From positions 1 to 64,000 of the IMG/VR virus record IMGVR_UViG_3300037424_001372: a stretch of DNA of 64,000 nt; one strand, given 5' to 3'. The DNA comes from a virus. Taxonomy: Duplodnaviria; Heunggongvirae; Uroviricota; Caudoviricetes. Each line of letters begins with the position of its first letter. The first letter of the stretch is position 1. A program made the position numbers and the translations under genes. Under the pieces are notes generated by a model, which saw only the letters and a program-made list of their open reading frames with translations, was not told where the DNA came from and made no database searches. This document shows positions 16,171-55,000 of the stretch, in pieces.

Positions 16171-16173
16171 ATT

Positions 16174-19307: not shown

Positions 19308-19312
19308 AAGAG

Positions 19313-19553: not shown

Positions 19554-19636
19554 AGCTGAGTGTCAGATTCGAACTGACGTGTCCTTTCGGATTTGGGTTA
19601 CAAAGCCAACGCAATCGACCACTATGCGAACTCAGC
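19554..19636 (-). tRNA. tRNA-Thr(UGU), extended variable arm
   Basis: TTGGC-TTTGTAA-CCCAA; TCC-GAAA-GGA V arm. Confidence 0.75.
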
Positions 19637-19649: not shown

Positions 19650-19680
19650 AAAAAACCCGAATCTTTCGAATCGGGTTTTT
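19650..19680 (-). terminator. attenuator terminator of tRNA operon 1
   Basis: AAAAACCCGA-TTCGAAAGAT-TCGGGTTTTTT; competing strand GGGTTTTTGTTT at 19720-19731. Confidence 0.85.
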
Positions 19681-19701
19681 GTCTTTTGTTCAGAAATTTC
19701 G

Positions 19702-19836
19702 TTAAACTTCCGTATCACTAAACAAAAACCCATTATCACTTCTGTCACTACTATTAAACGAACAGAATATACTATTTCCATTGCGACTAATTGTAGTCGT
19801 TATAGAGCTAATGATATTTGTAAATAATGTTTTCAT
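19702..19836 (-). CDS. leader peptide 1 (44 aa), MKTLFTNIISSITTTISRNGNSIFCSFNSSDRSDNGFLFSDTEV
   Basis: Between promoter and terminator; composition matches downstream tRNAs. Confidence 0.8.
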   Translation of the reverse strand: MKTLFTNIISSITTTISRNGNSIFCSFNSSDRSDNGFLFSDTEV

Positions 19837-19897
19837 TTTTTATATTTTATAATTTTAATTGTCGGGAAAATCCCGTCTTGAGTTTATAAATACTCAG

Positions 19898-19928
19898 CAA
19901 AGATATAAAATGTTGATACAACTGCAAA
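19898..19928 (-). promoter_or_regulatory. Bacteroidota primary-sigma promoter of tRNA operon 1, with adjacent late motif
   Basis: TTTG-N19-TATCTTTG then GTATTTATA. Confidence 0.8.
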
Positions 19929-23302: not shown

Positions 23303-26300
23303 TTACGAACACTTGCTCCAAGAACAATTTTGACATGAAATGCACCCCTCAGCAAAAATAAACTCAGTTCCATGACATTCAGGACATTTGCCTTTTACCT
23401 TTTCCCCATCTTTAATATATCGCTTTAACGTTCTAACCACACCATTTTTCCATGTATTAATATATTCTTCTTTAAAATTTAAGGAATCGATTAATTCATA
23501 TGCATAAATTAATGGCATACCGTGTCTTAAAATTCCTGAAATTAATTTAGCGTAGTTCCAAAATTCTGGATTGAATGCATGATTTAAGCCAGTATGTGTT
23601 TGTTTAACACCATCTGTATCGATATACTCAATATCATATCTTTTCATCTTAATTTTTTCAGCCTTTTCGTTAAGTTCTTCAGTTTCAATAATATTCTTAA
23701 CGACTTCACAGTCCTTAATGTTAACAGGAAGATTACTTAATCCATTCTCCAATTTACCAGTAAATAATTCATACGGTCTACCATCTTTAACACCAACAAC
23801 AGCAATCCATTTTTCTAAATTATTTTGGAATCTATGTATTTCACCCTTTAATCTTTTCGGACGTTTAGGTGCATGATTTTCATGAAACTCGACTTCACGT
23901 TCTTTATTCTTTTTATCGTTATCTGATATTAATACCCCTGAACGACTACCATCACGATAAATGGTAATACCCTTACAGCCACTTCTCCATGCAGTTTCAT
24001 ATATTTTAGCAACCAATTCTTCGGTGGCATCGTTTGGAATATTCACAGTGGTACTGATGGAATGGTCAATATTTGATTGAATTCTACCTTGCATTTCAAC
24101 CTTTTTAACCCAATCAACATCATTTGATGTGGCTTTATGATACGGTGACTGTTTGACAATTTCATCGATTTGAATATTTGTCATGGATTTAACAACATCG
24201 ACATCATAACCTTTAACTTTTAACCAAACCTCAAATTTATGATGGAAAACAGAATATTCCATCCAAGCAACACCTTCATCATCAACAAAATCGATACGTA
24301 CATCTTTTTCTTGTGGATTAATTTTACGTCTACGCCGATAAACTGGGAGAAAAACAGGTTCGATACCTGATGTTGTTTGTGTCATAAGACTTACACTACC
24401 TGTTGGTGCAATAGTTAATAATGCAATATTTCTACGACCATATTTAACCATATCATCATATAGTTGTTGATCCTCATTTTTTATCCTATTAATAAATGGA
24501 TTATTTAATTCCTTAGATATATCAAAAATTGGAAAAGTACCACGTTCTTTAGCTAATTCAACCGAAGAGCGATATGCTTCAAGTTTTAATGTTTTATGCA
24601 CTAATTCAGCGAAATCATTACTTTGTTCTGTACCATAAATTAAATTTAATGCAGCCAACATATCACCCTCAGCAGTAATACCTAAACCTGTACGACGACC
24701 AAGTTCAGCTTTACGTCTAATTTCTAACCACAATTCCCTTTCAATAGTTTTTACATATTCAGGTTCAGGGTCATTTTCAATTTTAGCTAATATTGCATCG
24801 ATTTTTTCTAATTCTAAATCAATAATATCATCCATATAGCGTTGAGCTAACCTAACATCACCACTAAATAATTTAAAATCAAAATAAGCGTTATCTGTAA
24901 ATGGATTGATGACATAACCAAACAAATTAACTACCAATAAACGACAGCTATCATATGGGGGTAGTGGTAATTCACCACAATTTGAAGTTACAACACCATT
25001 AAAACACCCCCTACCTCTTTTTTCTTCAGTAAAACAATATACTTTTTCAGCATCATCACATTCTTCAATTGATATTACCTTTATAAATCGAGATGCATCA
25101 CGATTCAGATTAATATCATCGATTTTAACCCTAAATGTTCTCAACCCTAAATCATGTAGCTTCTTTACGTTACTTGCATTAATAATTAAACGATATGACT
25201 TATTACAATCATATTCAACGCCATTTATTTCATGTAATCCACCATCTTTTTCATCAATAACTGAACCATTTACACCAAAAGTATTTAAAACATGAAGCTT
25301 AATATTCATTAGAAATTCTCTATCGATTGATGAAATACTAATTGCTCCTTCTTCTGAATTTAAACTACCATCTGAATCAATAATACCTGCTAACCATGAA
25401 AGTATTTGAGTATGTGATAAATTAAATTCATCATTATATTTAGGCACATATTTTTTAGGGTCAACCAGTGATAACATATTTATCGGCAATTTAACTCTAA
25501 CAGTAATTTTATCATTTTCAATAGACTCTGATTTATTTCCAATTATATTTAAATGATTAATGAGTTTCTTTTTTTCACCATATAATGAAATATGATGGGT
25601 AGACTCTCTTTTTATAAAACCATCACCCACGAAAAAACCTAATGTATAATAATCATTGGACGATATTTCATCTGTAATCGAAATCGATTGACCAAAATAT
25701 CTAGGTAACACAGGAAAATCATATTTTTCAAGTTTATCATTAATTTTCAAATCTTTGGCTTCTTTTTTTATCGATTTACCATCTCTACTATATCCATCCC
25801 AAGTATAAAACCCATGATATAATGTACATTTTAATTCTGAACCATCTGAAAATTTAATTTTCAACATTTTCTGATTGGTTCCTGTAATTGAAGGAATAAC
25901 TTTAGAGAATTCCCTACCATTCCATACATTTACTTTATGACCTGCAACACTACCAATTTCAACATAACCCATATCAGTTAAAATCAAAGTATCTTCACTA
26001 ACGCAAGGATTTGTACTTCTTTCAATCCATTCTTCACCATAACATGAAGGAATTGATTCTCTAATTAACGTGTCCCAAAACAAAATCCCCGGTTCTGCTG
26101 ATTTCCATGCATTATATATTATTTTATTCCACAATTTACGTGAATCTATTGTTTTAGTGAATTTAGGATTATCTGAATCAATTGGAAACTGTTGTTGATA
26201 TTTACCATCACCAAACACCGAATTCATGAACTCATCATCGAGTTTAATTGAAATATTAGCATTAGTAACCTGACCTTCAGCTAATTTAGCATCAACAAAT

Positions 26301-26884
26301 GATTCTGCATCAGGATGTTTTGATGATATCGATAACATTAACGCACCACGCCTACCTGATTGAGCAACTTCTTTAGTTGTATTCGAGTAACGTGTCATAA
26401 ATGGTACAACACCTGTCGATGATATTGCATCATTTTTAACCGGTGAATTATTTGGACGAATATATGATAAGTCATGACCTACACCACCCCTACGTTTCAT
26501 TAATTGTGCCTGTTCTTGATCTGTTTTAAAAATGCTTCCATATGAATCAAATTTATTACCAATAACAAAACAATTACCTAATGAAGTGACTTGATAATTA
26601 TTTCCAATACCTGACATTGGAGAACCTTGAGGTATTATTCTCTTAAACCCCTTTAATGTGTCATAGATTTTAGATTCTGGTGTTGGATTAGGGTATTTAC
26701 TTTCGATTCTAGCTATTTCACTTGCTATGCGTTTATGCATATCATCAGGAGTTAACTCACAATAATTACCATTATCATCCTTTAAACAGTACTTTTTACC
26801 ACACACGTCAGCAGCTAATGAATCACCATTAAAATACTCTAATGTAGCCTTTTCGACTTCACTTTTTTGATATTTTTTTACCAT
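23303..26884 (-). CDS. nrdJ: class II (AdoCbl-dependent) ribonucleotide reductase with intein
   Basis: SLGNCFV, GGVG, RRGALM, TNP|CGE, TIAPTGS, GCKGITIYRDGSR, C-terminal Zn ribbon. Confidence 0.92.
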   Translation of the reverse strand: MVKKYQKSEVEKATLEYFNGDSLAADVCGKKYCLKDDNGNYCELTPDDMHKRIASEIARIESKYPNPTPESKIYDTLKGFKRIIPQGSPMSGIGNNYQVTSLGNCFVIGNKFDSYGSIFKTDQEQAQLMKRRGGVGHDLSYIRPNNSPVKNDAISSTGVVPFMTRYSNTTKEVAQSGRRGALMLSISSKHPDAESFVDAKLAEGQVTNANISIKLDDEFMNSVFGDGKYQQQFPIDSDNPKFTKTIDSRKLWNKIIYNAWKSAEPGILFWDTLIRESIPSCYGEEWIERSTNPCVSEDTLILTDMGYVEIGSVAGHKVNVWNGREFSKVIPSITGTNQKMLKIKFSDGSELKCTLYHGFYTWDGYSRDGKSIKKEAKDLKINDKLEKYDFPVLPRYFGQSISITDEISSNDYYTLGFFVGDGFIKRESTHHISLYGEKKKLINHLNIIGNKSESIENDKITVRVKLPINMLSLVDPKKYVPKYNDEFNLSHTQILSWLAGIIDSDGSLNSEEGAISISSIDREFLMNIKLHVLNTFGVNGSVIDEKDGGLHEINGVEYDCNKSYRLIINASNVKKLHDLGLRTFRVKIDDINLNRDASRFIKVISIEECDDAEKVYCFTEEKRGRGCFNGVVTSNCGELPLPPYDSCRLLVVNLFGYVINPFTDNAYFDFKLFSGDVRLAQRYMDDIIDLELEKIDAILAKIENDPEPEYVKTIERELWLEIRRKAELGRRTGLGITAEGDMLAALNLIYGTEQSNDFAELVHKTLKLEAYRSSVELAKERGTFPIFDISKELNNPFINRIKNEDQQLYDDMVKYGRRNIALLTIAPTGSVSLMTQTTSGIEPVFLPVYRRRRKINPQEKDVRIDFVDDEGVAWMEYSVFHHKFEVWLKVKGYDVDVVKSMTNIQIDEIVKQSPYHKATSNDVDWVKKVEMQGRIQSNIDHSISTTVNIPNDATEELVAKIYETAWRSGCKGITIYRDGSRSGVLISDNDKKNKEREVEFHENHAPKRPKRLKGEIHRFQNNLEKWIAVVGVKDGRPYELFTGKLENGLSNLPVNIKDCEVVKNIIETEELNEKAEKIKMKRYDIEYIDTDGVKQTHTGLNHAFNPEFWNYAKLISGILRHGMPLIYAYELIDSLNFKEEYINTWKNGVVRTLKRYIKDGEKVKGKCPECHGTEFIFAEGCISCQNCSWSKCS
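24980..26005 (-). mobile_element. LAGLIDADG intein (342 aa) in the RNR NPCGE active site
   Basis: CVSEDTLI..LAGIIDSDG..GVVTSN|C. Confidence 0.9.
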
Positions 26885-28056: not shown

Positions 28057-28066
28057 GAATAAAAAC

Positions 28067-28096
28067 AAAAAACCTGATTCATTTGAATCGGGTTTT
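28067..28096 (-). terminator. terminator directly upstream of tRNA-Tyr
   Basis: AAAACCCGATTC-AAAT-GAATCAGGTTTTTT. Confidence 0.75.
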
Positions 28097-28163
28097 GATT
28101 ATCCTGTTTGCTATAGTTATTACTTAACTATGTTTCGCTTTACGGCAAACAATACCGTTAAAA

Positions 28164-31328: not shown

Positions 31329-31411
31329 TATATAAGGTGGGATTCGAACCCACGAACTCCAAAGAGAATGGTTTTGGAGACCATCGCCTTTAACCACTCG
31401 GCAAACTACGT
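31329..31411 (-). tRNA. tRNA-Trp(CCA) with long V arm, weak acceptor stem (possibly degenerate)
   Basis: ATGGT-CTCCAAA-ACCAT; CTC-TTTG-GAG arm. Confidence 0.55.
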
Positions 31412-31418
31412 GTTAAAA

Positions 31419-31898
31419 TTACAAAACATGTAATTTAGTTATTAAATATGAGATAGTTATTGCAATAAACACAATGTTTTCAACCCACCAAATATAATTT
31501 TTTCTACTTAATATGACTGCAAATATTGATAATCCAATTGAAATTAAATTTAGCCATAATAAATGTTGATTAAAATAAATATCTGCTTGTGATGCTAACA
31601 TACCAATAATTGCTGCAGGTAAATGAACTTGTCTTACAAATTTTTCTTTAATTTGAGCCGCAGCACCTACAAAAGCAATTCCAGTACCAGCTAAGAACAT
31701 TAATCCACTTTCTCCCAATATTATAGCTAGAAATGCAAATCCCCAACAAAATAATGTGAATAAAAAATTCCAATTAGTTGGTAAACAATAATAGCTGTTT
31801 GAAATTGATTTTTGAATACCATATTTAGTCCATATTGTAGTAACATAACTCCAATAAATGGTTTGCATGATAATAAATAAAATCCATTGATAATCCAT
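31419..31898 (-). CDS. multi-pass membrane protein
   Basis: About five hydrophobic helices; SISNSYY motif. Confidence 0.7.
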   Translation of the reverse strand: MDYQWILFIIMQTIYWSYVTTIWTKYGIQKSISNSYYCLPTNWNFLFTLFCWGFAFLAIILGESGLMFLAGTGIAFVGAAAQIKEKFVRQVHLPAAIIGMLASQADIYFNQHLLWLNLISIGLSIFAVILSRKNYIWWVENIVFIAITISYLITKLHVL

Positions 31899-31920
31899 AG
31901 TAGTAAGTTTATAATAAATA

Positions 31921-32445
<525 letters not shown>

Positions 32446-32515
32446 GTTATTAACTTTTAACAAAAGTAATGTTTGATAATTAATTTATCGAGATTTTTAA
32501 AAAATTTATAAATTG

Positions 32516-32587
32516 CACGCCTGAGAGGACTCGAACCCCTAACGTCTGGTTTTGGAGACCAGCATTCTACCATTGAATTACAGACGT
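32516..32587 (-). tRNA. tRNA-Trp(CCA)
   Basis: CTGGT-CTCCAAA-ACCAG; G73. Confidence 0.9.
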
Positions 32588-32592
32588 ATATG

Positions 32593-32667
32593 TAGCACAC
32601 ATGGGATTCGAACCCATACCTGTATAGTTTTTGAAACTACTCCCTCTACCCGTTGGGGCACTGTGCT
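32593..32667 (-). tRNA. tRNA-Leu(CAA), short variable loop
   Basis: GTAGT-TTCAAAA-ACTAT; A73. Confidence 0.75.
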
Positions 32668-32670
32668 ATA

Positions 32671-33456
32671 TTAATTATATTTATTATTCCAATTTTCAAT
32701 TCTAATTAATAATTCTTCTAAAGTTATTGAACATCTGAAATTTTTACTAATGTTATCATTATGAATCATTAATCTACAATTTGCAGGATGATTAATTATA
32801 TCTGAACTAATACCATTTTCAAAACCAAATTTTATTGAAATCATATGGTCACGACTAATACCATTTAAATTATCGCCTCTATTTTTAGCTTTATACTAAC
32901 CATATTTTTCAACTAATGTAAAATCGAATTCATTTGGATAATCAGCTAAATTAAATTTACATTCATTATAATATTTCTGATATTCATTAATATTTTTACT
33001 ATCATAAATTCGTTTACAATCTAAAGAACAAAAAACCCGTTTTCGATTCTTATAATTTAATACAGCATTACAATGTTTACAATAATTAGGCGATAAACCA
33101 TATTTGTACATATTTTCTTTAATATTTAACCTTTTTATTATTGCATCATTAATATTTTTTTTAGCTATATCGCTAAAATTTCTTTTACTATTAACTCTAA
33201 TACTATTATTAAATATTGCAGAACATGATTTTGAACAAAATTTTGCATTTTTTTCTGAAGAATAGAAAATATTATTACATTGTGAACAATATTTAGCATT
33301 TTTTTTCTTAAATTCATTATTACATTTTATCGAACAAAAATGTTTTCTTCCTAACTTTTCAGAACGATTATATTCACTCAATGTTTTTTCAAATTCTTTA
33401 TCACAATTTTCACAAGAAATTATAATTAATTTTCTATTATCTTTCCAACTATTCAT
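32671..33456 (-). pseudogene. Zn-finger HNH-like endonuclease with in-frame TAG (32896-32898)
   Basis: FCS..C repeats; frame continues KYG*YKAKNRGDNLNGISRDH..HPANC. Confidence 0.75.
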
Positions 33457-33529
33457 ATTTATAATTTACTATAAATACGTAAATATTTGAAAAATGTGGA
33501 ATACTTCGAATTCGAACTTGTATTATTAG

Positions 33530-33603
33530 TGGAGTCGATGGAGTATGATTCCACAACCTTCTGCTTGCAAAGCAGATGCTCTATCCATTTGAGCTACGAC
33601 CCC
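33530..33603 (-). tRNA. tRNA-Ala(UGC)
   Basis: TCTGC-TTTGCAA-GCAGA; G3:U70; divergent T-loop. Confidence 0.85.
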
Positions 33604-33612
33604 ATGTTATTG

Positions 33613-33699
33613 TATCTTAGGTCGGATTCGAACCGACACGGGCATTCCTGCCCAAGGGATTTTAAGTCCCTCATGTGCTACCAATTTCATCACTAAGAC
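33613..33699 (-). tRNA. tRNA-Leu(UAA)
   Basis: AGGGA-CTTAAAA-TCCCT; long V arm. Confidence 0.9.
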
Positions 33700-33705
33700 A
33701 TTTAG

Positions 33706-33780
33706 TACGAGTGGTGGGAGTCGAACCCACAAATTTCAGTTTCTAAGACTGTTGCCTCTTAACCGTTCGGCTACACTCGC
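33706..33780 (-). tRNA. tRNA-Leu(UAG), short variable loop
   Basis: ACAGT-CTTAGAA-ACTGA. Confidence 0.8.
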
Positions 33781-34271
33781 ATTTCTTTTTCAAGTATTGA
33801 ATGACAATTAGAACAAACAATAATTAAATTATTAAATTCATTATTAAAATGATTTCCATCAATATGATGTAGTTCGATTGGTATTTCTTGTCCTAACCAA
33901 GTATCATTACCACATTTTTCACATTTATGTTTTTTATAACCATCCCTAATTAATTTTAATTTTAATTTATGTGAACTAACATTACTTCCATTATAACAAT
34001 ATTCAAGAGCATTTTTTTTATTAAATGTTCTACCTTTATTAAAAGCACTACCTACAAAATGTGTAAATGAAATATTAAAATCAATTGCTCTTTTTTTTAT
34101 ATGAGTTTGTGAACCTGTCATTGGTTTAACTCCCAATATTCTACAAACATCAGCCCATGTTGTCGAACATTTAATAGCATTTTCTAATTGCTCATTAGTA
34201 TATTTATTTCTCATTAGTATATATGTTTTTATATAAATAGTAATGTGTATACTAAAAAGATTAAATTTCAA
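33771..34271 (-). CDS. HNH homing endonuclease
   Basis: CEKCG..ELHHIDGNHFNN..NL..CSNCH; stop overlaps tRNA-Leu 5' end. Confidence 0.85.
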   Translation of the reverse strand: MKFNLFSIHITIYIKTYILMRNKYTNEQLENAIKCSTTWADVCRILGVKPMTGSQTHIKKRAIDFNISFTHFVGSAFNKGRTFNKKNALEYCYNGSNVSSHKLKLKLIRDGYKKHKCEKCGNDTWLGQEIPIELHHIDGNHFNNEFNNLIIVCSNCHSILEKEMRV

Positions 34272-34297
34272 TATAATTACACAATATTATAATTAAG

Positions 34298-34371
34298 TAC
34301 CCCTAATCAGATTCGAACTGATACATTATACGGTCTTAACGTATTGCCTCTGCCAATTGGACTATAGGGGC
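34298..34371 (-). tRNA. tRNA-Leu(AAG), short variable loop
   Basis: ATACG-TTAAGAC-CGTAT. Confidence 0.75.
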
Positions 34372-34385
34372 GTATTATAAATTAG

Positions 34386-34475
34386 CATGAGCAGGGGGAT
34401 TCGAACCTAATTGCTATAGTCATCCCATTTTTCCTCTCGGACGAGGAACGTCTTACCACGTTAGACGATGCCCAT
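34386..34475 (-). tRNA. degenerate tRNA, Asp/Glu-like body, anticodon undetermined
   Basis: ATGGGCA/TGCTCAT acceptor, G73, irregular anticodon loop, poor T-stem. Confidence 0.4.
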
Positions 34476-34482
34476 ATTTTAG

Positions 34483-34557
34483 TGCTTTCTATTGGAGTCG
34501 AACCAATGACTTCCACATTGTAAGAGCGACACTCTAAACCAACTGAGTTAAGAAAGC
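34483..34557 (-). tRNA. tRNA-Val(UAC), weak anticodon stem
   Basis: CTTACAA loop; GCTTTCT acceptor. Confidence 0.7.
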
Positions 34558-34566
34558 AAATAATAG

Positions 34567-34639
34567 TACATCTGATAGGACTCGAACCTATGGTGTCTTG
34601 TTTGTAATACAAGTGCTTTTGCCACTAAGCTACAGATGC
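34567..34639 (-). tRNA. tRNA-Val(UAC)
   Basis: CTTGT-ATTACAA-ACAAG. Confidence 0.85.
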
Positions 34640-34709
34640 ATGTAGGGTGGTGTAGTAGCGAACATCACCACCCTAGATAGCCGAAGCTATAACGGTCCTA
34701 AACCGTATG

Positions 34710-34781
34710 TATTCGGACGGGGAATCGAACCCCGATTTTTGGGATGAAAACCCAACTTCCTTGCCGTTAGAAGACCCGAAC
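34710..34781 (-). tRNA. tRNA-Glu(UUC)
   Basis: TTGGG-TTTTCAT-CCCAA. Confidence 0.85.
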
Positions 34782-34784
34782 ATA

Positions 34785-35558
34785 TTATTTTTCATATCTA
34801 AATTTCCAACTTCTAATTGTATTATCACTGACCTTATATTTATAACCAGCACCTCGATATCCCAATTCACTAATATCTTTAATTAATTGCTCATAAGATG
34901 GTTTAATTTGATTTTTTACAAATCTACCTAACTTCCATCCATTATTTAAATATACATTTAAATCAATTTTATTTATTTTTTTATCTAATTCATTTTTAAA
35001 TACCCAACAAGTACCAAATTGTGAATTATTTTCTTTAATTCCTCTACCACGATGAGATATACTCATTTTATTTTTAGATTCATCAGTATGTTTTTTATTG
35101 GTGAATGTATTATATTTTAATACACCATCAATATGCATTTTTTTAAATCTATTACTTGCTCTTTTTTTATGATTTTCAATAAAATTAGGGTCTAACCAAA
35201 GTTTATTTAAAAAATTTGTTGAACCTTCTCTAATTTTTTTAATAGATTCTTCACACAACCCATTAAGACCACCTTCACCACCCAATTTCAAATTCATACA
35301 CATTGGGTCTTTTAATGTATTTTCATTAACCAATTCCTTTTCAGCCTCTTTTAATAATTTTCGTGATTCAAAATATTTAAGAATTTCAAATATGTGATTT
35401 TCTTTACCATATTTATTTATTGAATACCACAATCTTTTTCCACTTCCATAATAACCATCATTAATATTATTAGTACTATGCATGCCATAATAATAACGAT
35501 TATTTATATTATTAGTTATTTTATATAAATAATTAAATTTTCTTTCACTTCTTGCCTT
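34785..35558 (-). pseudogene. GIY-YIG/NUMOD3 homing endonuclease, start codon apparently mutated
   Basis: Frame open upstream of the track ORF: (AAG)ARSERKFNYLYKITN..YYYGMHST; NUMOD3 KKHTDESKNKMS. Confidence 0.65.
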
Positions 35559-35603
35559 CTTAATATTTTTTATAAATACTAAGATGGTACAAAAAGTTCA
35601 AGG

Positions 35604-35678
35604 TAGTGCCAACGGGGTTCGAACCCGCACATGACCAGTTTGAAGGACTGGTGACTTAACCAGTTTGCCAATAGCACC
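35604..35678 (-). tRNA. tRNA-Glu(UUC)
   Basis: CCAGT-CCTTCAA-ACTGG (C33). Confidence 0.8.
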
Positions 35679-35680
35679 AT

Positions 35681-36292
35681 TTATATTGTTTTTAAATTAA
35701 TGAAAAGTTCATAACCTAAAACATTTAAAATTTTAATTAAATTATTAATAGTAACATTTGATTTATTTAATTCAATTGTTTTTATTGTTCGTAAACTAAC
35801 TTCTGAAATATTAGATAGTTGTTGTTGTGTAATATTTAATATTTTACGTCTTCTTTTTATTAAAGAACCAATATCAGATTCATTTCCAAATTTCATTAAT
35901 GAATTATTTAATTGTTCCATTAATATTTTTTCTCTATATTCTATTTGTTGTTTTAATTTTTCATTATAATTATTCAAATTATTATTATATGAATCAGTAA
36001 TTAAGTAATTAAATAAATCATGATTATCATTTAATAATTTTCCAACCCAATATTTTTCTTTATCAACTAATTGTGTCCAATCAGAAACATTTTCTAATAC
36101 AATAACAGTTGGTGTATAATCATTCATTTTAAGTTCATTAATCCAATCATTTACTAATGGATTGTGTGAATGTGTTAAATGTGATTCAGCTCTTTTAACT
36201 CCGTTAATAGATTTACCAACATATTTAAATTCATCTGTTCTAGGGTCTTTTAAACCATAAATAATATTTTCATTCATAAACATTTTTAACAT
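35681..36292 (-). CDS. GIY-YIG domain fused to XRE helix-turn-helix
   Basis: IYGLKDPR..YVGKS; RRKILNITQQQLS..VSLRTI..IE. Confidence 0.75.
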   Translation of the reverse strand: MLKMFMNENIIYGLKDPRTDEFKYVGKSINGVKRAESHLTHSHNPLVNDWINELKMNDYTPTVIVLENVSDWTQLVDKEKYWVGKLLNDNHDLFNYLITDSYNNNLNNYNEKLKQQIEYREKILMEQLNNSLMKFGNESDIGSLIKRRRKILNITQQQLSNISEVSLRTIKTIELNKSNVTINNLIKILNVLGYELFINLKTI

Positions 36293-36461
36293 AAATACTA
36301 ATAATGTTTATTAAAAGTGCTATATAATATACGATTTTTTTTTTATTTAAATGACGAACTATTATTTTACTGTTAAAACAGTATTTTAATTTTTATTATA
36401 ACTAAATAATATAATATATTGCACTTTTACTTAAAAATTACTGGTTTAGCAGTAATTTTAG

Positions 36462-36534
36462 CACTCCCGATGGGACTCGAACCCACATAACCCGCATAGA
36501 CAGTGCGGTCGGCAACCTTTGCCACCACAGGGGT
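36462..36534 (-). tRNA. tRNA-Asp(GUC)
   Basis: CCGCA-CTGTCTA-TGCGG; G73. Confidence 0.75.
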
Positions 36535-36549
36535 GTTTAATAACTAGGG

Positions 36550-36621
36550 CGGTCTATGCGAGACTCGAACTCGCTTCTCATGGCTGACAACCACAAAGGA
36601 TAACCCATACCCTAATAGACC
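36550..36621 (-). tRNA. tRNA-Asp(GUC)
   Basis: GTGG-TTGTCAG-CCAT; G73. Confidence 0.7.
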
Positions 36622-36633
36622 AATTTTCCCAAT

Positions 36634-36656: not shown

Positions 36657-36699
36657 AAAAAAAAAGAACCCGACTCGTTTTAGTTAGTCGGGTTCTTTT
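36657..36699 (-). terminator. attenuator terminator of tRNA operon 2
   Basis: AAAAGAACCCGACT-loop-AGTCGGGTTCTTTTTTTTT; competing strand TGTCGGGT at 36733-36740. Confidence 0.85.
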
Positions 36700-36720
36700 A
36701 TTATAAAAGAAAGGAGTGTG

Positions 36721-36831
36721 TTATTTCACATTACCCGACAAAGTATAGTAATCCTCGTCTGCCCATAAAAGAGCATCTACCACTAACATGGCTTCAAGGA
36801 CTAATGATAATATGTCTAGTAATTTTTTCAT
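36721..36831 (-). CDS. leader peptide 2 (36 aa), MKKLLDILSLVLEAMLVVDALLWADEDYYTLSGNVK
   Basis: Between promoter and terminator; composition matches downstream tRNAs. Confidence 0.82.
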   Translation of the reverse strand: MKKLLDILSLVLEAMLVVDALLWADEDYYTLSGNVK

Positions 36832-36874
36832 CTTGATTTTATTTAAATCTGTTTGTTTCTATCTAAATACGTAG

Positions 36875-36905
36875 CAAAGTTATAAAATGTTACAACAACT
36901 GCAAA
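36875..36905 (-). promoter_or_regulatory. Bacteroidota primary-sigma promoter of tRNA operon 2
   Basis: TTTG-N19-TAACTTTG; near-identical to the operon 1 promoter. Confidence 0.8.
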
Positions 36906-36912: not shown

Positions 36913-37335
36913 TCAAATATTTTTATCTTTTTTTATTGTTGGTGTTATAACTATCTGATAATCATTAATTTCATATGTTTTAAATAATGACATAATGTTC
37001 ATAGTTCCGTATGGATTCATTGAATGTACCATGATATTTGTGGGTACGTCTAATTTATTATCCATACAATAATCAATAAGCCATTTAGCACAATGATAAC
37101 CAGTTTTTTCATATGTTTCATCATTGTAATCGAAATTTTGCTTTTTATAATGTATATCAGCAAGGTCATGGTCAAATGAAATAATATTTGGTAAACCTTT
37201 GCTTTGAATAATATTAATGAATGCAAAATAATTTCGTACTATATGCCATTTTTCATCCATATATATTGGAAGATGCATATACTTGAAAGCATCTTTAGGC
37301 ATTCTGTAATCGTCAAGAAATGGATTATAGCTCAT
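36913..37335 (-). CDS. cyclic-phosphate processing receiver-domain protein
   Basis: FLDDYRMP..ISFDHDL..TGYHCAKWL..VHSMNPYG. Confidence 0.75.
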   Translation of the reverse strand: MSYNPFLDDYRMPKDAFKYMHLPIYMDEKWHIVRNYFAFINIIQSKGLPNIISFDHDLADIHYKKQNFDYNDETYEKTGYHCAKWLIDYCMDNKLDVPTNIMVHSMNPYGTMNIMSLFKTYEINDYQIVITPTIKKDKNI

Positions 37336-37704: not shown

Positions 37705-37799
37705 GATTTATAATTTTTAGATGATACGTTATTTATTGAAAAATGTTTCAATTATTATTGAATTTTTCTATAAATACTTTAATTAAAAGTAATTGAGTG

Positions 37800-37882
37800 T
37801 TGTCCCCACAGGATTCGAACCTGTAAACCCTAATGGGTGTCTGCTTCAAAGACAGATGCAATAACCATTCTGCCAGAGGACA
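37800..37882 (-). tRNA. tRNA-Gln(UUG), extended variable arm
   Basis: TCTGT-CTTTGAA-GCAGA; ACCC-ATTA-GGGT arm; U1-A72. Confidence 0.8.
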
Positions 37883-37934
37883 ATTTTAAATTTTGCAATT
37901 TTAATTGAAATATAATCATTATCGCAAAATATAG

Positions 37935-38008
37935 CAGTCTCGGTAGGATTCGAACCTACATTCTTCTGATTCAGAGTCAGGGGCGTTAGCCAATTGCGCT
38001 ACGAGACT
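37935..38008 (-). tRNA. tRNA-Gln(CUG)
   Basis: CCTGA-CTCTGAA-TCAGA. Confidence 0.85.
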
Positions 38009-38138
38009 ATATACCTTTTATGACTAGACTTTTACTAGCAATTGAGTGTATCAGAACACTACCCTCGTCCCACATTGTTTACAGTTCTCTAAGTGAACCA
38101 CGAGTGACTTCTTATATCATCCACATAAAAGGATTTAG

Positions 38139-38214
38139 GGTGAAAGACGGGACTCGAACCCGCAAATTCCTGATTCACAGTCAGGCAAGTCTAACCAATT
38201 CCTTTACAATCACC
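38139..38214 (-). tRNA. tRNA-His(GUG)
   Basis: CCTGA-CTGTGAA-TCAGG; G-1:C73. Confidence 0.8.
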
Positions 38215-38224
38215 ATTTAAATAG

Positions 38225-38299
38225 TCGGGATGGCAGGATTCGAACCTGCGAGTTCTCTTGCTTCCAATGCAAGCGGGGTGACCTCTCCCCAACATCCCG
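38225..38299 (-). tRNA. tRNA-Pro(UGG)
   Basis: CTTGC-ATTGGAA-GCAAG; C1:G72, A73. Confidence 0.85.
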
Positions 38300-38331
38300 A
38301 AATATTGTCCCTAATATACATATTTGAGACA

Positions 38332-38408
38332 TGGGGTGAACGATGGGACTCGAACCCACAACTATCAGAACCACAATCTGACGTTCTACCAATTGAACTA
38401 CGTCCACC
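38332..38408 (-). tRNA. tRNA-His(GUG), encoded CCA
   Basis: TCAGA-TTGTGGT-TCTGA; G-1:C73. Confidence 0.9.
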
Positions 38409-38447
38409 ATTTGTTATAAAACCAACTTTTCAAAGAACATTATTTTG

Positions 38448-38543
38448 TCAGGAATGTGGGATTCGAACCCACGGATGACAACGCCTTTGTGTCATCGCTG
38501 GTTTCCAAGACCAGCAGCTTAAACATTACTCGACCGCTTCCTG
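38448..38543 (-). tRNA. tRNA-Pro(UGG) with very long variable arm
   Basis: CTGGT-CTTGGAA-ACCAG; GATGACA..TGTCATC arm; C1:G72, A73. Confidence 0.7.
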
Positions 38544-38553
38544 TTATTTGTTG

Positions 38554-38626
38554 TAGGGATGACGAGGCTCGAACTCGCATAATTCCCGCTTCCAATGCGG
38601 GTCGTCTCCCAATTGACTTCACCACT
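38554..38626 (-). tRNA. tRNA-Pro(UGG), divergent
   Basis: CCCGC-ATTGGAA-GCGGG. Confidence 0.65.
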
Positions 38627-38638
38627 CTATATTTTTTG

Positions 38639-38709
38639 TTGTCCTCAGAGGATTCGGACCTCTACGCCAACAGTCAAAGTGTTGTGTGCTACCATTACAC
38701 TAGAGGACA
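38639..38709 (-). tRNA. tRNA-Gln(UUG)
   Basis: CAACA-CTTTGAC-TGTTG; U1-A72. Confidence 0.85.
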
Positions 38710-38748
38710 ATAAAAAACCCACTCTTTTCAGAATGGGTTTTTTATTGT
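38707..38748 (-). terminator. attenuator terminator of tRNA operon 3
   Basis: ACAATAAAAAACCCATTC-TGAAAA-GAGTGGGTTTTTTATTGT; competing strand GAATGGG..TATTGTT at 38789-38807. Confidence 0.85.
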
Positions 38749-38764
38749 TTTTCAAGTGAGGTAT

Positions 38765-38893
38765 TTATCCCCAAGATTCTTCATGATTAACAATAGGATT
38801 CCCATTCACCATCCTTTGTGGATGTTGTGGTTGTTGGGGCTGATGCATTACTACTATTTCCATTGTTTCTTTTTTTAAAAATCGTTTCTTCAT
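38765..38893 (-). CDS. leader peptide 3 (42 aa), MKKRFLKKETMEIVVMHQPQQPQHPQRMVNGNPIVNHEESWG
   Basis: Ten consecutive His/Gln/Pro codons upstream of eight Gln/Pro/His tRNAs. Confidence 0.88.
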   Translation of the reverse strand: MKKRFLKKETMEIVVMHQPQQPQHPQRMVNGNPIVNHEESWG

Positions 38894-38941
38894 TTTTTAA
38901 GTTTTAGATAAATTTATTACCCTTGACTTATAAATACGATG

Positions 38942-38972
38942 CAAATATACTAATTGCTATCATAATAGCAAA
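38942..38972 (-). promoter_or_regulatory. Bacteroidota primary-sigma promoter of tRNA operon 3, with adjacent late motif
   Basis: TTTG-N19-TATATTTG then GTATTTATA. Confidence 0.8.
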
Positions 38973-39435: not shown

Positions 39436-40023
39436 TTAGCAATATGAAATATTACGAATATTATCTTTCATTTCACTTGTTCTAATTGGAAGGCTTTCAG
39501 ATTCAATATAATTTTGAATAAAATGACGAATGAGCAATGTTTGAATTCTTGATGGAGCATTATCAAATGCAATAAATTTAATTTCATCACCTTCCATGTT
39601 CCACATACTTACAAAAATATCATTCCATTCAAACGAATCGAACCATTTATCTGTTTGAGGTTCATTGTGATAATTACCAACATCTTCTTTACCATCAACA
39701 TTAGCATATATATTATCGCCTTTAAAAAGTATGTTAAATTTTACAGGTTCTTTTGTCGAATCATATAAATAAGCAATATCGATGGCATATTCTAAAGATA
39801 TATTATTGTTATCACCAATTTCCCAATTACCTGAAACATATGATTCTGTTTTTTTTAGAACTTTAACATTATTTTTATTCAAAAGTGAATCACAAATAAA
39901 TTGTTTTTGCAAATCTTCATTTAACAACAATTCATTAGCTTCTTGTTCTTTAAGAAATCTATCGTTACTAAGAAAATCAAATTTAGATACTTCTTCTTTA
40001 ACTATTTTAAGTATGTTTATCAT
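39436..40023 (-). CDS. late protein with IVKEE N-terminus
   Basis: Late motif at about 40047. Confidence 0.7.
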   Translation of the reverse strand: MINILKIVKEEVSKFDFLSNDRFLKEQEANELLLNEDLQKQFICDSLLNKNNVKVLKKTESYVSGNWEIGDNNNISLEYAIDIAYLYDSTKEPVKFNILFKGDNIYANVDGKEDVGNYHNEPQTDKWFDSFEWNDIFVSMWNMEGDEIKFIAFDNAPSRIQTLLIRHFIQNYIESESLPIRTSEMKDNIRNISYC

Positions 40024-47718: not shown

Positions 47719-50661
47719 ATGAGCGATGAATTTGATTTAGAATTAGATAATACATCAAAAGAAAAGGGATTTGATATAAATCCTAATTTGAATGATGAGA
47801 GTGATAAATTTCCAGACCACGTTCCTTTAGTTCCAATAGATACGCAAAGAGAAAAAGAAAAAGAAGAAACTCGTAAATTAGCAAAAAAACTTCGCAATAA
47901 AAGTGGTAATGCTGAACCTATTATTATTACTAAGGCAGGTGTAATAAAAAAAGCTAGTGAATTAACTGTATTTGAACAAGAAGATGAAATTGTTCAATGT
48001 GTTACAGACCCAATATATTTTATTGAGACTTATTTAACAATATTTGACCAAACTCAAGGTATTGCCGGTATGATAGTGCCTTTTAAGCTATTTGATTATC
48101 AAAAAGATTTAATAAGAACATATTTAGATGAAAGATTTGTTGTGGCCAACAAATATCGTCAGGCAGGTATTTCAACCACCACATGTGCATATATCGCTTG
48201 GTATGTAATGTTTAACAAAAACAGACAAGTTGCAATTGTAGCAGATAAACTTGAAACTGCTATGGGTGAGTTAATGTCGGATGTTGTTGATTTTATTGAA
48301 AGTTGTCCCAAATGGTTAAAACCTAAAACAGGTAAAGCAAGTGAAAAGAATTTAAAAGATACTCAAAAACTAAAAATCTACGATAATGAATCTAAATTAG
48401 GTGCATTTGCATCAAAATCATTACGTGGTTATACACCTACGTTATTATTTTGGGATGAGACAGCTTGGGCTGAAAAAGGAGATAAATTCTGGACAGCAGC
48501 ATTACCCTCTCTAGTAACTGGAGGTAGGGCAATTATGGTTTCTTGTGTTACTAAAGATACTTACATATATACTAATAAAGGCATTAAACAAATTAAAGAT
48601 TTTATTCCAAATGAAGCATTGGGTGCATATATAATCGATGAATATGAAATATTGGGTAAAGATAAATTAAGGAAAGGAACGTTATTTTTTAATAATGGTT
48701 ATGTCGATACATTGAAAATTAAAACAACTTTTTCTGAGTTGGAATCTAGTTATAACCATAAATATTGGGCATATAAAACAAGCGAAAACAAATATGGTAT
48801 ATATAAAACAAATGAACTGGAAGTTGGTGATTATATATCAATACAATATGGGATGAATATTTGGGGTAATAATGATAGTTGTTCGGATTTTAAACCTACG
48901 ATAACACATCATAATAGAAATATTTTTAACACAACAAAAATAACCAAAGATATTGCATATCTTATCGGTTTATATATTTCAGAAGGTTCTGCAATAAAAA
49001 AAAGTAAAAAAAATTATGATTATTATGGTATTACAATTACATGTGGTGACAATATTTCAGGAATATTGAATGCCTTAAATCTTAATTATTCTTGTACAGA
49101 TTCATTACATTATGTAATATCATCATTAAACTTAGTAGAATATTTAAAATATTTGGGATTTGATTTATCAAAAAAAGCACCACAAAAAATAATACCGCCA
49201 AGATTATTCGAAATGAGCCGAGACAATATTATTGCAATGATTCAAGGCATAATGGATGGTGATGGTTGGGTTAGTTATAAAAAAACAAATAAATTATCCG
49301 TTGGCATTGGGCTATCATCAAAAGAACTAATTCAACAATTAAGGATATTATTTGGAAATTTTGGAATATTGACTTATTATAACGAATCATTAACATCACC
49401 AACAAAAATAGTTAATGTTAGTTCTAATAAATATACTATTGAAGCATCGAATTCATATGCATTAAAATATTTTGATGAAATCGGTTTTAGGTTCAATAGA
49501 AAACAGATAAAAAAAGATTTATTTAATATTAATAAATTAAAACATTTGGGTGTTGTCGATAATATACCAAATGGGAAAGAAATCGCATATAAAATTTATA
49601 ATGAAATAAAAAAATATGGTAAATTACAAGAATTAAAAACACATGATATAAAAATTGATGGCTGGATCAGTAGAAAAAAACAAAAATCTAATTCATGTTC
49701 AAGAAAAATGTTATTAAATTTTTTTAATTTAGAAAAAAATAATTTATCGAATAATATACTAAACGAAATAAATCCAATATTATCTAATAATCAATATTGG
49801 ACAAAAATTAAATTAATTGAACGATCTAAGAATTATACATATGATTTTTCATTACCAAATGAACCTGAAGAACCAAATGATTTTCATCATTCTGTAATAT
49901 ATAATCAAATAATTGGCTACCAAACACCATCAGGTCTTGATGCTGTATTCTACAAAACATTTGATGGAGCAAAAAATAAAAAAAATGAAAATAATTTCTA
50001 TGCGGTTGAACTTTGGTGGTATAATGATCCTCGATATAATAAAAATCTATACTGGGTAAAAAACAAAAATAGGGAAAATGAAATTAGAATCGAGGATAAT
50101 GGTCGAACTAAGGAACAACGAATGCAATTGGTTGAAGATGGGTGGGTAGCATCAAATGAATGGTTCGAATCACAAATTAGAAACGCAAATGGTGATATGC
50201 GTAAGGTTGCACAAGAATTATTGTGTGTTTATGGTGATGCATTGTTGACTATAAGAAATAAATCTACAATGAAAATTGAATTTATTTCTATTAGAGATTT
50301 ATATAATAAATTAAAAGAACAAAATAATTCTTCAAAGTTTTTATATGAAAATAAATCAATAAATAAAATGAAATTATTAAATAAAATACTTGCAATTAAT
50401 ATTGAAAAATATAAAACTAGTAGGGCAACATCTATATTTAAAAAAGACTATCCTGAATTAATTAAATTAGTTAATCATCACACCATTGATATGCAGATTT
50501 GTCGGTCAAATAAGATAATGTATGCAAAATTATTGTTTTTAAAAAAATATTATGGTAATATTAACAACATTATTATTAATAATAATGTTATGATATTTAA
50601 TAATAAGACTAGTGATTTTATTGAAAAAGCAAGTAATGCAACAAAAAACATCAATATTTAA
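47719..50661 (+). CDS. terL: terminase large subunit, N-terminal gene (ATPase; contiguous intein plus split-intein N fragment)
   Basis: DPIYFIETY, FKLFDYQ, KYRQAGIST, LFWDETAW, S|TPSG, QELL|CVYGD. Confidence 0.92.
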   Translation: MSDEFDLELDNTSKEKGFDINPNLNDESDKFPDHVPLVPIDTQREKEKEETRKLAKKLRNKSGNAEPIIITKAGVIKKASELTVFEQEDEIVQCVTDPIYFIETYLTIFDQTQGIAGMIVPFKLFDYQKDLIRTYLDERFVVANKYRQAGISTTTCAYIAWYVMFNKNRQVAIVADKLETAMGELMSDVVDFIESCPKWLKPKTGKASEKNLKDTQKLKIYDNESKLGAFASKSLRGYTPTLLFWDETAWAEKGDKFWTAALPSLVTGGRAIMVSCVTKDTYIYTNKGIKQIKDFIPNEALGAYIIDEYEILGKDKLRKGTLFFNNGYVDTLKIKTTFSELESSYNHKYWAYKTSENKYGIYKTNELEVGDYISIQYGMNIWGNNDSCSDFKPTITHHNRNIFNTTKITKDIAYLIGLYISEGSAIKKSKKNYDYYGITITCGDNISGILNALNLNYSCTDSLHYVISSLNLVEYLKYLGFDLSKKAPQKIIPPRLFEMSRDNIIAMIQGIMDGDGWVSYKKTNKLSVGIGLSSKELIQQLRILFGNFGILTYYNESLTSPTKIVNVSSNKYTIEASNSYALKYFDEIGFRFNRKQIKKDLFNINKLKHLGVVDNIPNGKEIAYKIYNEIKKYGKLQELKTHDIKIDGWISRKKQKSNSCSRKMLLNFFNLEKNNLSNNILNEINPILSNNQYWTKIKLIERSKNYTYDFSLPNEPEEPNDFHHSVIYNQIIGYQTPSGLDAVFYKTFDGAKNKKNENNFYAVELWWYNDPRYNKNLYWVKNKNRENEIRIEDNGRTKEQRMQLVEDGWVASNEWFESQIRNANGDMRKVAQELLCVYGDALLTIRNKSTMKIEFISIRDLYNKLKEQNNSSKFLYENKSINKMKLLNKILAINIEKYKTSRATSIFKKDYPELIKLVNHHTIDMQICRSNKIMYAKLLFLKKYYGNINNIIINNNVMIFNNKTSDFIEKASNATKNINI
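48544..49923 (+). mobile_element. LAGLIDADG intein (460 aa) ending Tyr-Gln before Thr
   Basis: CVTKDTYI..IGLYISEG..IQGIMDGDG..YNQIIGYQ|T. Confidence 0.85.
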
Positions 50662-52084: not shown

Positions 52085-55000
52085 ATGGCAAACGAAAATA
52101 ATAGTAAGAATACTATATATCAAGAACTAAATAAGTTGTTAAATCTTGATGGCTTTGGGTTTCAGGAATCAAATGCGACAATACATTCTCAAATTCCTGA
52201 AGAATCTAAAATAATTATTAAAGGTAATTCACCAGAAGAAATACATAGAAAAGGACTTGAAATTGAACAAAAAAATAAAATTAAAAACAAGTTCTTTAGA
52301 ACCACTGATAGAAGTTTTCAAAAAGCACTTCAATATGAAGCAGCAAGACTTCCGGCATATATGGATTATGAGGGAATGGAATATTATCCTATCATTTCAT
52401 CCGCTTTAGATTTATTTATGGAGGAAGCAACTACAATAGGTATTAATGGTAAAATGTTAAATGTTCATTCAAACAAAGAAAGAATAAAAACATTATTAGA
52501 AGATTTTTTTTATAATACTGTAAATGTTAATGTTAATCTGCCATTTTGGACGAGGAACGTGGTAAAATATGGTGATGATTTTGTATTATTATACGGTGAA
52601 AGAAAAAAAGGGATTACACATGTCAAACAATTGGTAAATTATGAAATTGAACGTTTTGAACGTATTCAAAATGGTAAATCAATAGTCAAGTTTAAAGAAA
52701 GAATGACTGGTGATGAATTTAATGTTTTTGAAATAGCGCATTTTCGTTTGCTTGGCGATGACAAATATTTACCATATGGAAGTTGTTTATTATCAGATAC
52801 TTATGTAAAAACAAATAAAGGAACCAAACAAATTAAAAATATTGTAAAAGATGATATTGTAATTGGATTTGATATTAAGACACAGAAAAAAATTGAGACA
52901 ACAGTATTAGACACAATTAAAAGTGGTAAAAAGGAAGTATTTAAAATATCAACAAAACATAATTATATAGATTCCTCTAAAGAACATAAATTTTTAATAT
53001 ATGATGATAATATTAATAATTTTAGGTATGAATTTGTTGAAAATTTAAAAATTGGTGATAAATTAATAATTAATGATTCTGATAAGAATGACACAATAAA
53101 AAATATTAATAAAGAAGAAAAGGTTACTATTGATAGATTAAAAAGAAAGTTTCGTTATTATCAAAATATTGATAATATTCCTAATACTATAACAACTGAG
53201 TTCGCCCAATTTATTGGATTTATGTTTGGGGATGGATGGATATCACATAATAAAGACATATCATTTGCACTTGGTGAATATGAAACACAAAATTTAAAAT
53301 ATATAAATTTATTAGAAAAATTTTCTGGTGTTAAACCCAAACTAATTAAACCCAATATTAAAGTTAATTACAATTATTCACAAGTAAATGTTGGTTCTAA
53401 AATGCTGGCAACAATATTGATTGAATTGGGTTTTCATGGTAAGTTTAATGAAAAAAGAATACCTGATTGGATTTTTGATTCGCCTAAAGAAATTAGAGAG
53501 GCATTTTTAGATGGATTTGTTGATGCGGATGGGTCAATATTTATTGATAAATGGGATTGTGTGAGATATTCGATTGAATTGGGAAATAATGAACTTATAA
53601 AAGATTTAAAATATTTGGTTCAATCATTGGGATATAAATCTGGAAAAATTTCTACCAGAAAAAGAATCGATGATAAATTTATTAAAGGAAGAAAAATCAA
53701 TTCAAACACATCACACTATTTTTATTTTTTCAAAACAATAAATAAACAAATAAAAAAGTATGATGTAAATAATAGATTTTCAAATGAATTTATTGTTGAA
53801 CCAATAATTTCAATTGAAAATATTGGAGTACATGATGTTTACGATATACACGTTGATAATGAAAATCATAATTTTTTCGCCAATAATATCGTTGTCCATA
53901 ATTCTGTATTAAATAAAGTTCGTAGAGTTTTCAGACAATTAATAATGGCTGAAGATGCTATGTTAACATATAGAATCATTCGTGCCGGTGAGAAAAAAGT
54001 GTTTAAAATTGATGTGGGTAATATTGATGAGGATGATATTGAAGAATATATTTATAAAGTAGCGACTACATTTAAAAAAGTAAGTCAAGTAAATCCTAAT
54101 GATGGTCAAATTGATTATCGTTTTAATATTTTAGGTAATGATGAAGATTATTTTATACCAGTAAGAAATGCAAATACTCAAACAGGTATTGATACCTTAC
54201 CGGGTGCATGTTTATCTTTAGAAACTAAAATTGAATTACTTGATGGTCGTAGTTTAGAATTAAGCGAAATTATCACAGAATTTAATTCAGGAAAGGAACT
54301 TTGGTCATATTCGATTAATCCTAAATCAGGGCAAATCGTTCCGGGTAAGATTACTTGGGCAGGTGTGACTAGAAAAAATACTGATGTAATTAAAATTACA
54401 TTAGATAATGGAGAATCAATTATATGTACACCTGACCATAAATTCCCAACTAAATTTAATGGTACTAAAGAAGCCAAAGATTTAATTGTTGGTGAATCTA
54501 TGTGGGCTTTTAATAAAAAGAAAAGTATTATAAAGGGCGGTAGTGGAATTGATAATACATATGAAATGATTTACGATCATTCAACGAATGATTGGAGATA
54601 TACTCATAGAATGGTGGCACATTACTTGAAAGAAAATGATTTATGTGAAGTTTTTGCATATAAAATATATGATAATAACATGCAAACAATTCATCATAAA
54701 GATTTTAACAGATATAATAATAGTCCACAGAATATATGTTATATGAATTCTAAAGACCATTTTTACTATCATCACGATTTTGCTAAAGAAATGTATGAAA
54801 CATATTCAGACGAAACAAAATTAATTCATAAAAATCTTAGAAAAACTGGTGTTAAGAATTATTGGGATAATATTACAACTGAAGAATTGCAACAAAAAAA
54901 GGTTGTTGCTAAGAATAATTCGATAAAATCAAGAGATAAGGCGAATAAAACCTTTAATAATAATCCCAATAAAATTAATATTATTAAATTAAGGGGAGAA

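Follow-up and report, generated by a model that had tools for sequence, protein, structure and literature searches.

Leader-peptide attenuation of transcription is a textbook mechanism, known for genes of enzymes and synthetases. In the trpL, hisL, pheL and leuL systems of E. coli and Salmonella, a short leader with regulatory codons is combined with mutually exclusive 1:2, 2:3 and 3:4 hairpins and with an intrinsic terminator before the first gene. The stop codon of the leader is placed so that the terminating ribosome masks segment 2. Here, a locus of comparable construction is described ahead of phage tRNA genes. It is found in the first 64 kb (64,000 nucleotides (nt), hereafter the window) of the IMG/VR virus record IMGVR_UViG_3300037424_001372 (Caudoviricetes), whose whole length is 324,744 bp, estimated to be complete. 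The locus consists of a promoter, a leader with ten consecutive His/Gln/Pro codons, a terminator and eight tRNA genes for Gln, Pro and His, all on the minus strand.

With a probability of roughly 70%, this locus is a classical four-segment, ribosome-mediated (leader-peptide) transcription attenuator controlling the phage tRNA operon. Comparison with relatives gives strong support to the attenuator architecture. An earlier note, made from the letters of the window alone, had read the locus in this way, and what that reading predicts for the promoter, the leader, the terminator, the antiterminator strand and the matched changes in the 2:3 and 3:4 pairings holds in the window and in 35 distinct relatives; the stop codon is placed as predicted in 34 of these relatives.

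Leader, hairpins and tRNA operon in the window

The putative Bacteroidota-type promoter (38942-38972), as read from the sequence, has TTTG at 38972-38969, a 19-nt spacer, and TATATTTG at 38949-38942. Its form is TTTG-N19-TAnnTTTG, which we take to be the Bacteroidota consensus. Scanning the window for this pattern gives six matches. Three of them are the promoters of three leader units, of which the unit described here is leader 3, and none lies inside the Gln/Pro/His tRNA cluster. The spacer of the leader-3 promoter is filled by a perfect 7-bp inverted repeat, TTGCTAT-N4-ATAGCAA (38971-38954). This repeat occurs nowhere else in the window, and a dimeric DNA-binding protein could use it as an operator.

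Leader 3 is an open reading frame (ORF) of 42 codons at 38893-38765, with its stop codon at 38767-38765. A second in-frame ATG at 38863 would give 32 codons, and this agrees with the spacing from start to run in the relatives. The ten consecutive His/Gln/Pro codons (CAT CAG CCC CAA CAA CCA CAA CAT CCA CAA, encoding HQPQQPQHPQ) are seen in frame at 38845-38816, as had been claimed for this leader. When all six frames of the 324,744-bp genome are read, no other Q/P/H run of at least eight residues is seen. Q, P and H together account for 7.4% of the residues in the long ORFs of the phage; with this background, chance would give about 3e-6 runs of 10 residues over the six frames. The run is real and far above chance.

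Four RNA segments can be defined. Segment 1 (38836-38867) is composed of AACAATGG at 38867-38860, which includes the second ATG, and CCCC at 38839-38836, which is in the run. Segment 2 (38789-38807) is the antiterminator strand and is composed of GAATGGG (38807-38801) and TATTGTT (38795-38789). Segment 3 (38731-38749), with AACAATA and CCCATTC, is the 5′ arm of the terminator and is common to the antiterminator and the terminator. Segment 4 (38712-38725) is the 3′ arm of the terminator, AGAGTGGG, with a six-U tract at 38717-38712. The loop of the terminator is GAAA at 38729-38726.

The complementarity of segments 2 and 3 had been noticed by eye, and it holds in folding: 38807-38789 pairs with 38749-38731 at -14.7 kcal/mol when the 3′ arm of the terminator is omitted from the fold. 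The terminator hairpin has a core of -14.7 kcal/mol and reaches -25.6 kcal/mol with its extension of A/U pairs. In the predicted fold of the untranslated leader of the window, AACAATGG (38867-38860) pairs with CTATTGTT (38796-38789), and the G residues of segment 2 are taken up by CCCC (38839-38836). This 1:2 hairpin is a feature beyond what the earlier note described. The U-tract at 38717-38712 does abut tRNA-Gln, which begins at 38709 with 2 nt between them. The order in the window is canonical: promoter, leader, run, complementary segments, terminator, and then tRNA-Gln.

The operon of eight tRNAs (37799-38709) was delimited with ARAGORN, Rfam, the sequences themselves and homologue alignments. 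In the direction of transcription, it contains tRNA-Gln(UUG) at 38709-38638, tRNA-Pro(UGG) at 38626-38554 (found by Rfam only, with 33.3 bits, its anticodon read from the loop), a 93-nt tRNA-Pro(UGG) with a long extra arm at 38541-38449, tRNA-His(GUG) at 38407-38332, tRNA-Pro(UGG) at 38299-38224, tRNA-His(GUG) at 38213-38138, tRNA-Gln(CUG) at 38008-37934, and an 84-nt tRNA-Gln(UUG) with a long extra arm at 37882-37799, whose anticodon was determined from the homologue alignment. All eight read Gln, Pro and His codons only. Eight tRNAs of these three kinds and no others, with one tRNA-Gln(CUG) among them, are what had been proposed from the sequence, and ARAGORN, Rfam and the homologue alignment bear this out. 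No further tRNA was found in the cluster, and its 129-nt gap at 38137-38009 gives no tRNA or RNA-family match; the equivalent gap in relatives is about 58 nt.

ARAGORN calls the last tRNA (37882-37799) Phe(GAA). This call is overturned by compensatory changes in the anticodon stem among homologues. The stem occurs as TCTGT/GCAGA, TCGCC/GGCGA and TCGGT/GCCGA, and this covariation fixes the loop as CTTTGAA, so the tRNA is Gln(UUG), the identity that had first been claimed for it.

Codon and RNA constraint among relatives

Relatives were collected by two routes. Forty-three loci were fetched from viral metagenomes with the neighbouring 195-amino-acid (aa) protein and then with its alignment, at 32-53% identity. 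A scan for DNA encoding QPQPQQHP gave 44 matches, about 29 of which are the same leader-terminator-tRNA unit in AT-rich contigs; the remainder are GC-rich chance matches without tRNAs. The alignment A6 contains 36 distinct leaders, those of the window and 35 distinct relatives. All 35 have a short ORF with a Q/P/H run, the segment GAATGGGG, a terminator, and then Pro/His/Gln tRNAs. At each locus that covers the upstream region, the leader, the spacer and the terminator (CCCCATTC, loop, GAGTGGGG, U-tract) are present.

The leaders of the relatives are 18-25 codons long, and their consensus starts with MKNLVNI followed by QPQPQQHPQ. In the run of the aligned leaders, the column entropy is 0.26, 0.28 and 0.86 at codon positions 1, 2 and 3; the variability at the third position is three times that at the other two. 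The ATG is invariant, and the frame from the ATG to the run is open in every aligned leader. Because the run varies mainly at third codon positions and the ATG is invariant, the leader is likely to be translated. The pattern of the run indicates a translated sequence in which the amino acid, and hence the tRNA used, is conserved.

The adjoining stretch behaves differently. GAATGGGG, the complement of the 5′ arm of the terminator, lies 6 nt past the run and is invariant everywhere, wobble positions not excepted. Its translation is E-W-G in 31 sequences, V-N-G in the window (a +1 shift) and T-G in L100; in L053, L054 and L056, there is an overlap between it and the stop codon. Since GAATGGGG is invariant yet read in three frames or across a stop, constraint at the RNA level appears to be the only explanation of its invariance. 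This family is a clean comparative example of one stretch constrained as codons and an adjoining one constrained as RNA.

The same comparison bears on whether leader 3 is a gene in its own right, which encodes a small protein and ends at a terminator of its own. Expression of the tRNAs would then rely on constitutive readthrough or on promoters that went unrecognised, and the codon match would be coincidental. The conserved N-terminus MKNLVNI would suit such a gene, and so would the terminator, which is strong and bidirectional in form. However, there is no protein-level conservation in the C-terminal half of the peptide, whose reading frame is not the same in the window, in L100 and in the other sequences; in L053, L054 and L056, the ORF is cut short. 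The run, with its chance of about 3e-6 genome-wide, adjoins cognate tRNAs, and the match is repeated in the two other units. The gap between the U-tract and tRNA-Gln is too short for a promoter. A separate small-protein gene is thus highly improbable, and the attenuator reading is followed below.

The spacing in the relatives fits the attenuator. The run ends 3-13 nt ahead of segment 2, and the stop codon lies between 12 nt before and 10 nt after the end of segment 2, with 34 of the 35 within about 12 nt. With such spacing, a stalled ribosome would free segment 2, and a terminating one would cover it.

Both alternative pairings are conserved. Over 288 cells, 2:3 is paired in 96.9%, while slid controls give at most 62%. 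A double change from UA to CG in this pairing is seen in L045, L050, L053 and L100, each with a matching third change in segment 4. For 3:4, which is the consensus structure from RNAalifold, the value is 97.9%, with four doubly changed pairs and slid controls again at most 62%. The terminator of L054 has TCTCATTC/GAATGAGA, and its segment 2 retains the G's, pairing by G-U. The 1:2 hairpin is predicted in the window and nearly all relatives. In the relatives, the start-codon segment pairs with the sequence at and after the stop codon, and TGGGG of segment 2 is bound by CCCCA of the run. For this hairpin, the paired fraction is 73.6% versus at most 48% for slid controls, and one of its pairs occurs as GC, AU and GU; its support is weaker than that of 2:3 and 3:4.

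The spacer between segments 2 and 3 includes a conserved motif, AGTTTTAGGTTAAAC (alignment A3, columns ~105-120; for example L017 2035-2050). The four-segment model has no need of it. GGTT of the motif can pair with AACC just before segment 3.

Each sequence was folded up to the end of segment 3, with or without everything 5′ of segment 2, the latter mimicking a stalled ribosome. The mean probability of 2:3 pairs is 0.96 without the leader 5′ of segment 2, and 0.16 with the full untranslated leader because the long 1:2 hairpin forms. The locus therefore has, in silico, a leader ORF with regulatory codons, exclusive 2:3 and 3:4 hairpins, a 1:2 hairpin, and an intrinsic terminator before the first gene.

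The 1:2 helix can also be considered as part of an RNA-only element in which the ORF is incidental: a structure for processing or stability, a site bound by a protein, a leader that binds tRNA, or a C-rich site for the entry of Rho. A conserved helix joins the start-codon segment to the segment after the stop codon. This helix could be the reason why the N-terminal codons are conserved, with no peptide involved. The run is C/A-rich and G-poor. An element of this kind would not account for the invariant ATG, the frame that is always open through the run, and the period-three variation. Besides, leaders 1 and 2 are not C-rich, yet they match their own tRNA sets. There is no match to a T-box (RF00230) or to another RNA family in an E-value-threshold Rfam scan of 14000-40000. 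An RNA-only element is improbable, and a Rho entry site in the C-rich run ranks low.

In the attenuator, transcription would start from the host-type promoter, and the short leader would be translated. Slow decoding of Gln, Pro or His would stall the ribosome in the ten-codon run. The stall would break the 1:2 hairpin and free segment 2, which would then pair with segment 3. Without the terminator, RNA polymerase would enter the eight Gln/Pro/His tRNA genes. When decoding is smooth, the ribosome would pass over segment 2 to the stop codon and come to rest either on segment 2 or in the stretch that separates it from segment 3. The terminator would then form from segments 3 and 4, and transcription would stop 2 nt ahead of the first tRNA. 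If the leader is untranslated, the 1:2 hairpin would occupy segment 2, and the terminator would form as well.

Stalling, switching and the physiological signal are what this architecture suggests, and readthrough would depend on the decoding of Gln, Pro and His. The phage probably makes these tRNAs only when ribosomes read Gln/Pro/His codons slowly. Because the products of the operon are tRNAs reading the test codons, the circuit would act by negative feedback on how much usable tRNA-Gln, tRNA-Pro and tRNA-His the infected cell has.

Several points weigh against this attenuator. The covariation of the antiterminator is seen in one column and four sequences. The tree of the neighbouring protein has just two well-supported inner branches, and the change from UA to CG might have one origin or several. 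The stop codon in the window is 32 nt beyond segment 2, the least canonical feature of this copy; a ribosome at this stop would fill the 37-nt loop within the TATTGTT:AACAATA helix, which might block the antiterminator. Among the leader models of Rfam, the best is the Thr leader with 29.9 bits versus a cut-off of 55, covering the terminator only. We know of no demonstration of tight transcription-translation coupling in Bacteroidota. A tRNA-Pro (19080-19009) and a tRNA-Gln (near 294.3 kb) are outside this unit. In some relatives, a Lys-rich small ORF is interposed between the terminator and the first tRNA (L005, 5305-5433, minus strand, 42 codons; also L006, L013, L025 and L097). In these relatives, the attenuator would also gate a small protein.

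A comparison of tRNA-His loss with the loss of His codons from the leader was tried with L011/L026, L046 and L009, where ARAGORN gives an apparent lack of tRNA-His. Diverged His(GUG) tRNAs are present in all of them, based on Rfam and inspection, and no His-less case is left for comparison.

Parallel units, the sensed signal and the genome

The two other leader units are also on the minus strand. Leader 2 is encoded at 36831-36721, with a putative promoter at 36905-36875 (unit 36657-36905), and is rich in L/D/V/E/A/W. Its GTCGGGT (36739-36733) is complementary to ACCCGAC in the terminator at 36695-36657, and the unit is followed by Asp, Glu, Val, Leu, Ala and Trp tRNAs. Leader 2 is conserved in relatives, with a stop codon straight after GTCGGG; the window reads the same bases in another frame. 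Leader 1 is encoded at 19836-19702, with a putative promoter at 19928-19898 (unit 19650-19928), and is rich in T/N/I/S/C/G. Its AATGGGTTTTTG (19734-19723) is complementary to the terminator arm (19683-19650), and Thr, Cys, Asn, Met, Ile, Ser, Gly and Arg(UCU) tRNAs follow. The amino acids of the own operon make up 66% of leader 2 versus a background of 31% (p = 2e-5), and 65% of leader 1 versus a background of 43% (p = 0.003). Leaders 1 and 2 contain zero Q, P or H in 78 residues (p = 0.0025).

These operons are partly sorted by the first codon base. Operon 3 (37799-38709) serves only codons starting with C (CAN and CCN), operon 2 (31329-36622) contains Asp, Glu, Val and Ala, whose codons start with G, and operon 1 (14883-19636) contains Thr, Asn, Ile, Met, Ser(AGY) and Arg(AGA), whose codons start with A. 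The exceptions are Leu, Trp, Cys, Gly and one Pro. A tRNA-Tyr is also preceded by a terminator-like hairpin with a U-tract (AAAACCCGATTC..., 28057-28100, minus strand). Upstream of this hairpin, there is neither an intact leader ORF nor a promoter match.

A real ribosome-driven attenuator might instead be a timing or stress switch for the operon that reports starvation for amino acids or the infected cell's general capacity for translation. A stalled ribosome cannot distinguish a missing tRNA from an uncharged one, and every leader-peptide attenuator that we know of responds to amino-acid supply. The operon may also run on into two protein genes (37704-37471 and 37335-36913), because the last tRNA is trailed by a weak AT-rich hairpin only. 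Extra tRNA, however, gives no relief of amino-acid starvation, so the match between codons and products would be purposeless, and three leaders each matching their own tRNA set fit the sensing of tRNA supply. A starvation or stress switch is unlikely.

If tRNA supply is what is sensed, it can be speculated that giant phages of Bacteroidota gate each tRNA operon by a leader written in the codons of its own tRNAs, sensing and replacing depleted sets of host tRNAs. The depletion could come from host shut-off, codon-usage mismatch or anticodon-nuclease defence. This extension to all operons is tentative, with odds somewhat short of even.

A Bacteroidota host is pointed to by short DNA similarity to Cellulophaga phages and by the TTTG-N19-TAnnTTTG promoters. 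With the 5.6 kb around the locus as a query, deposited phage genomes give only tRNA-sized matches and a short match to Cellulophaga phages, and no annotated relative is found among them. The canonical 2-3-4 motif has zero exact matches across 185,579 prokaryote genomes. In a flavobacterial transcriptome, strong clues for leader-peptide attenuation at amino-acid operons were reported and graded as likely (PMC9723704), and leader-like small ORFs were remarked on in a Bacteroides study (PMC7366714). These observations make the mechanism plausible in Bacteroidota.

The G+C content of the window is about 27%. Among the 33 tRNAs of the genome found by ARAGORN, 30 are inside the window, every one on the minus strand. 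Six minus-strand tRNAs of 83-93 nt have a long extra arm and anticodons for Pro, Gln, Trp, Thr, Met and Gly (38449-38541, 37799-37882, 31329-31411, 19553-19636, 18720-18802 and 16084-16170). These amino acids are normally served by short-arm tRNAs. The long-arm Pro and Gln tRNAs are kept in relatives with compensatory changes.

The second of the two protein genes past the last tRNA of operon 3 (36913-37335, minus strand) encodes a 140-aa protein just 3′ of the tRNAs, with a cyclic-phosphate processing receiver domain (PF20274, E = 2.5e-19). The family is linked by its Pfam name to cyclic-phosphate RNA end processing, and the gene may be co-transcribed with the tRNA operon. On the other side, the 195-aa neighbour gene (39436-40023) is co-directional with the tRNA operon in the window and divergent in all relatives (L005, 5989-6612), which implies a putative local inversion. 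Elsewhere in the window, a T4-like portal and ribonucleotide reductase are encoded, both split by inteins; inteins with LAGLIDADG domains in the ribonucleotide reductase or portal gene are at 23303-26884, 47719-50661 and 52085-56482. ORFs similar to GIY-YIG and NUMOD3 homing endonucleases (34785-35483 and 35681-36292) are among the tRNAs of operon 2.

Comparison with known attenuators

No description of leader-peptide attenuation of tRNA genes was found in a search of the full-text literature, which was not exhaustive. If the attenuator is real, no case before it would be known, and decoding capacity would be under a direct feedback loop in which the ribosome itself senses tRNA supply, corrected set by set. 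It would bear on why large phages carry many tRNAs and when these are expressed, and would provide a testable link among phage tRNAs, codon demand and host defences targeting tRNAs. Such an element would, in addition, be a small natural device for sensing how fast chosen codons are decoded, and could be put to use in Bacteroidota, a group with few characterised regulatory parts.

As in T-box riboswitches, the state of specific tRNAs would be sensed, and a switch between terminator and antiterminator stands ahead of translation-related genes. T-boxes bind tRNA directly, with no ribosome involved, by means of a specifier codon and the T-box motif; both are absent here. The pheM leader of E. coli pheST resembles this locus in being a leader-peptide attenuator over a translation component that serves the sensed amino acid. 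The pheST attenuator controls a synthetase and senses one amino acid, whereas tRNAs are controlled here. In thrL (Thr/Ile) and the ilvGMEDA leader (Ile/Val/Leu), as in leader 3, several amino acids are sampled, and any stall opens the operon. What unites Gln, Pro and His here is the tRNA content of the operon and not a shared biosynthetic pathway.

With trpL, hisL, pheL and leuL, the locus shares the short leader with regulatory codons, the exclusive 1:2, 2:3 and 3:4 hairpins, the terminator before the first gene, and the placement of the stop codon. It is not a member of the His, Thr, Trp or Leu leader families of Rfam on two counts: no match reaches the gathering score, and the downstream genes are eight tRNAs rather than biosynthetic enzymes. 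There is no sequence or model similarity to these leaders. Unlike them, this is a phage element with a promoter pointing to Bacteroidota; tRNA genes, not enzymes, would be regulated, and the product would feed back directly on the decoding step that is sensed.

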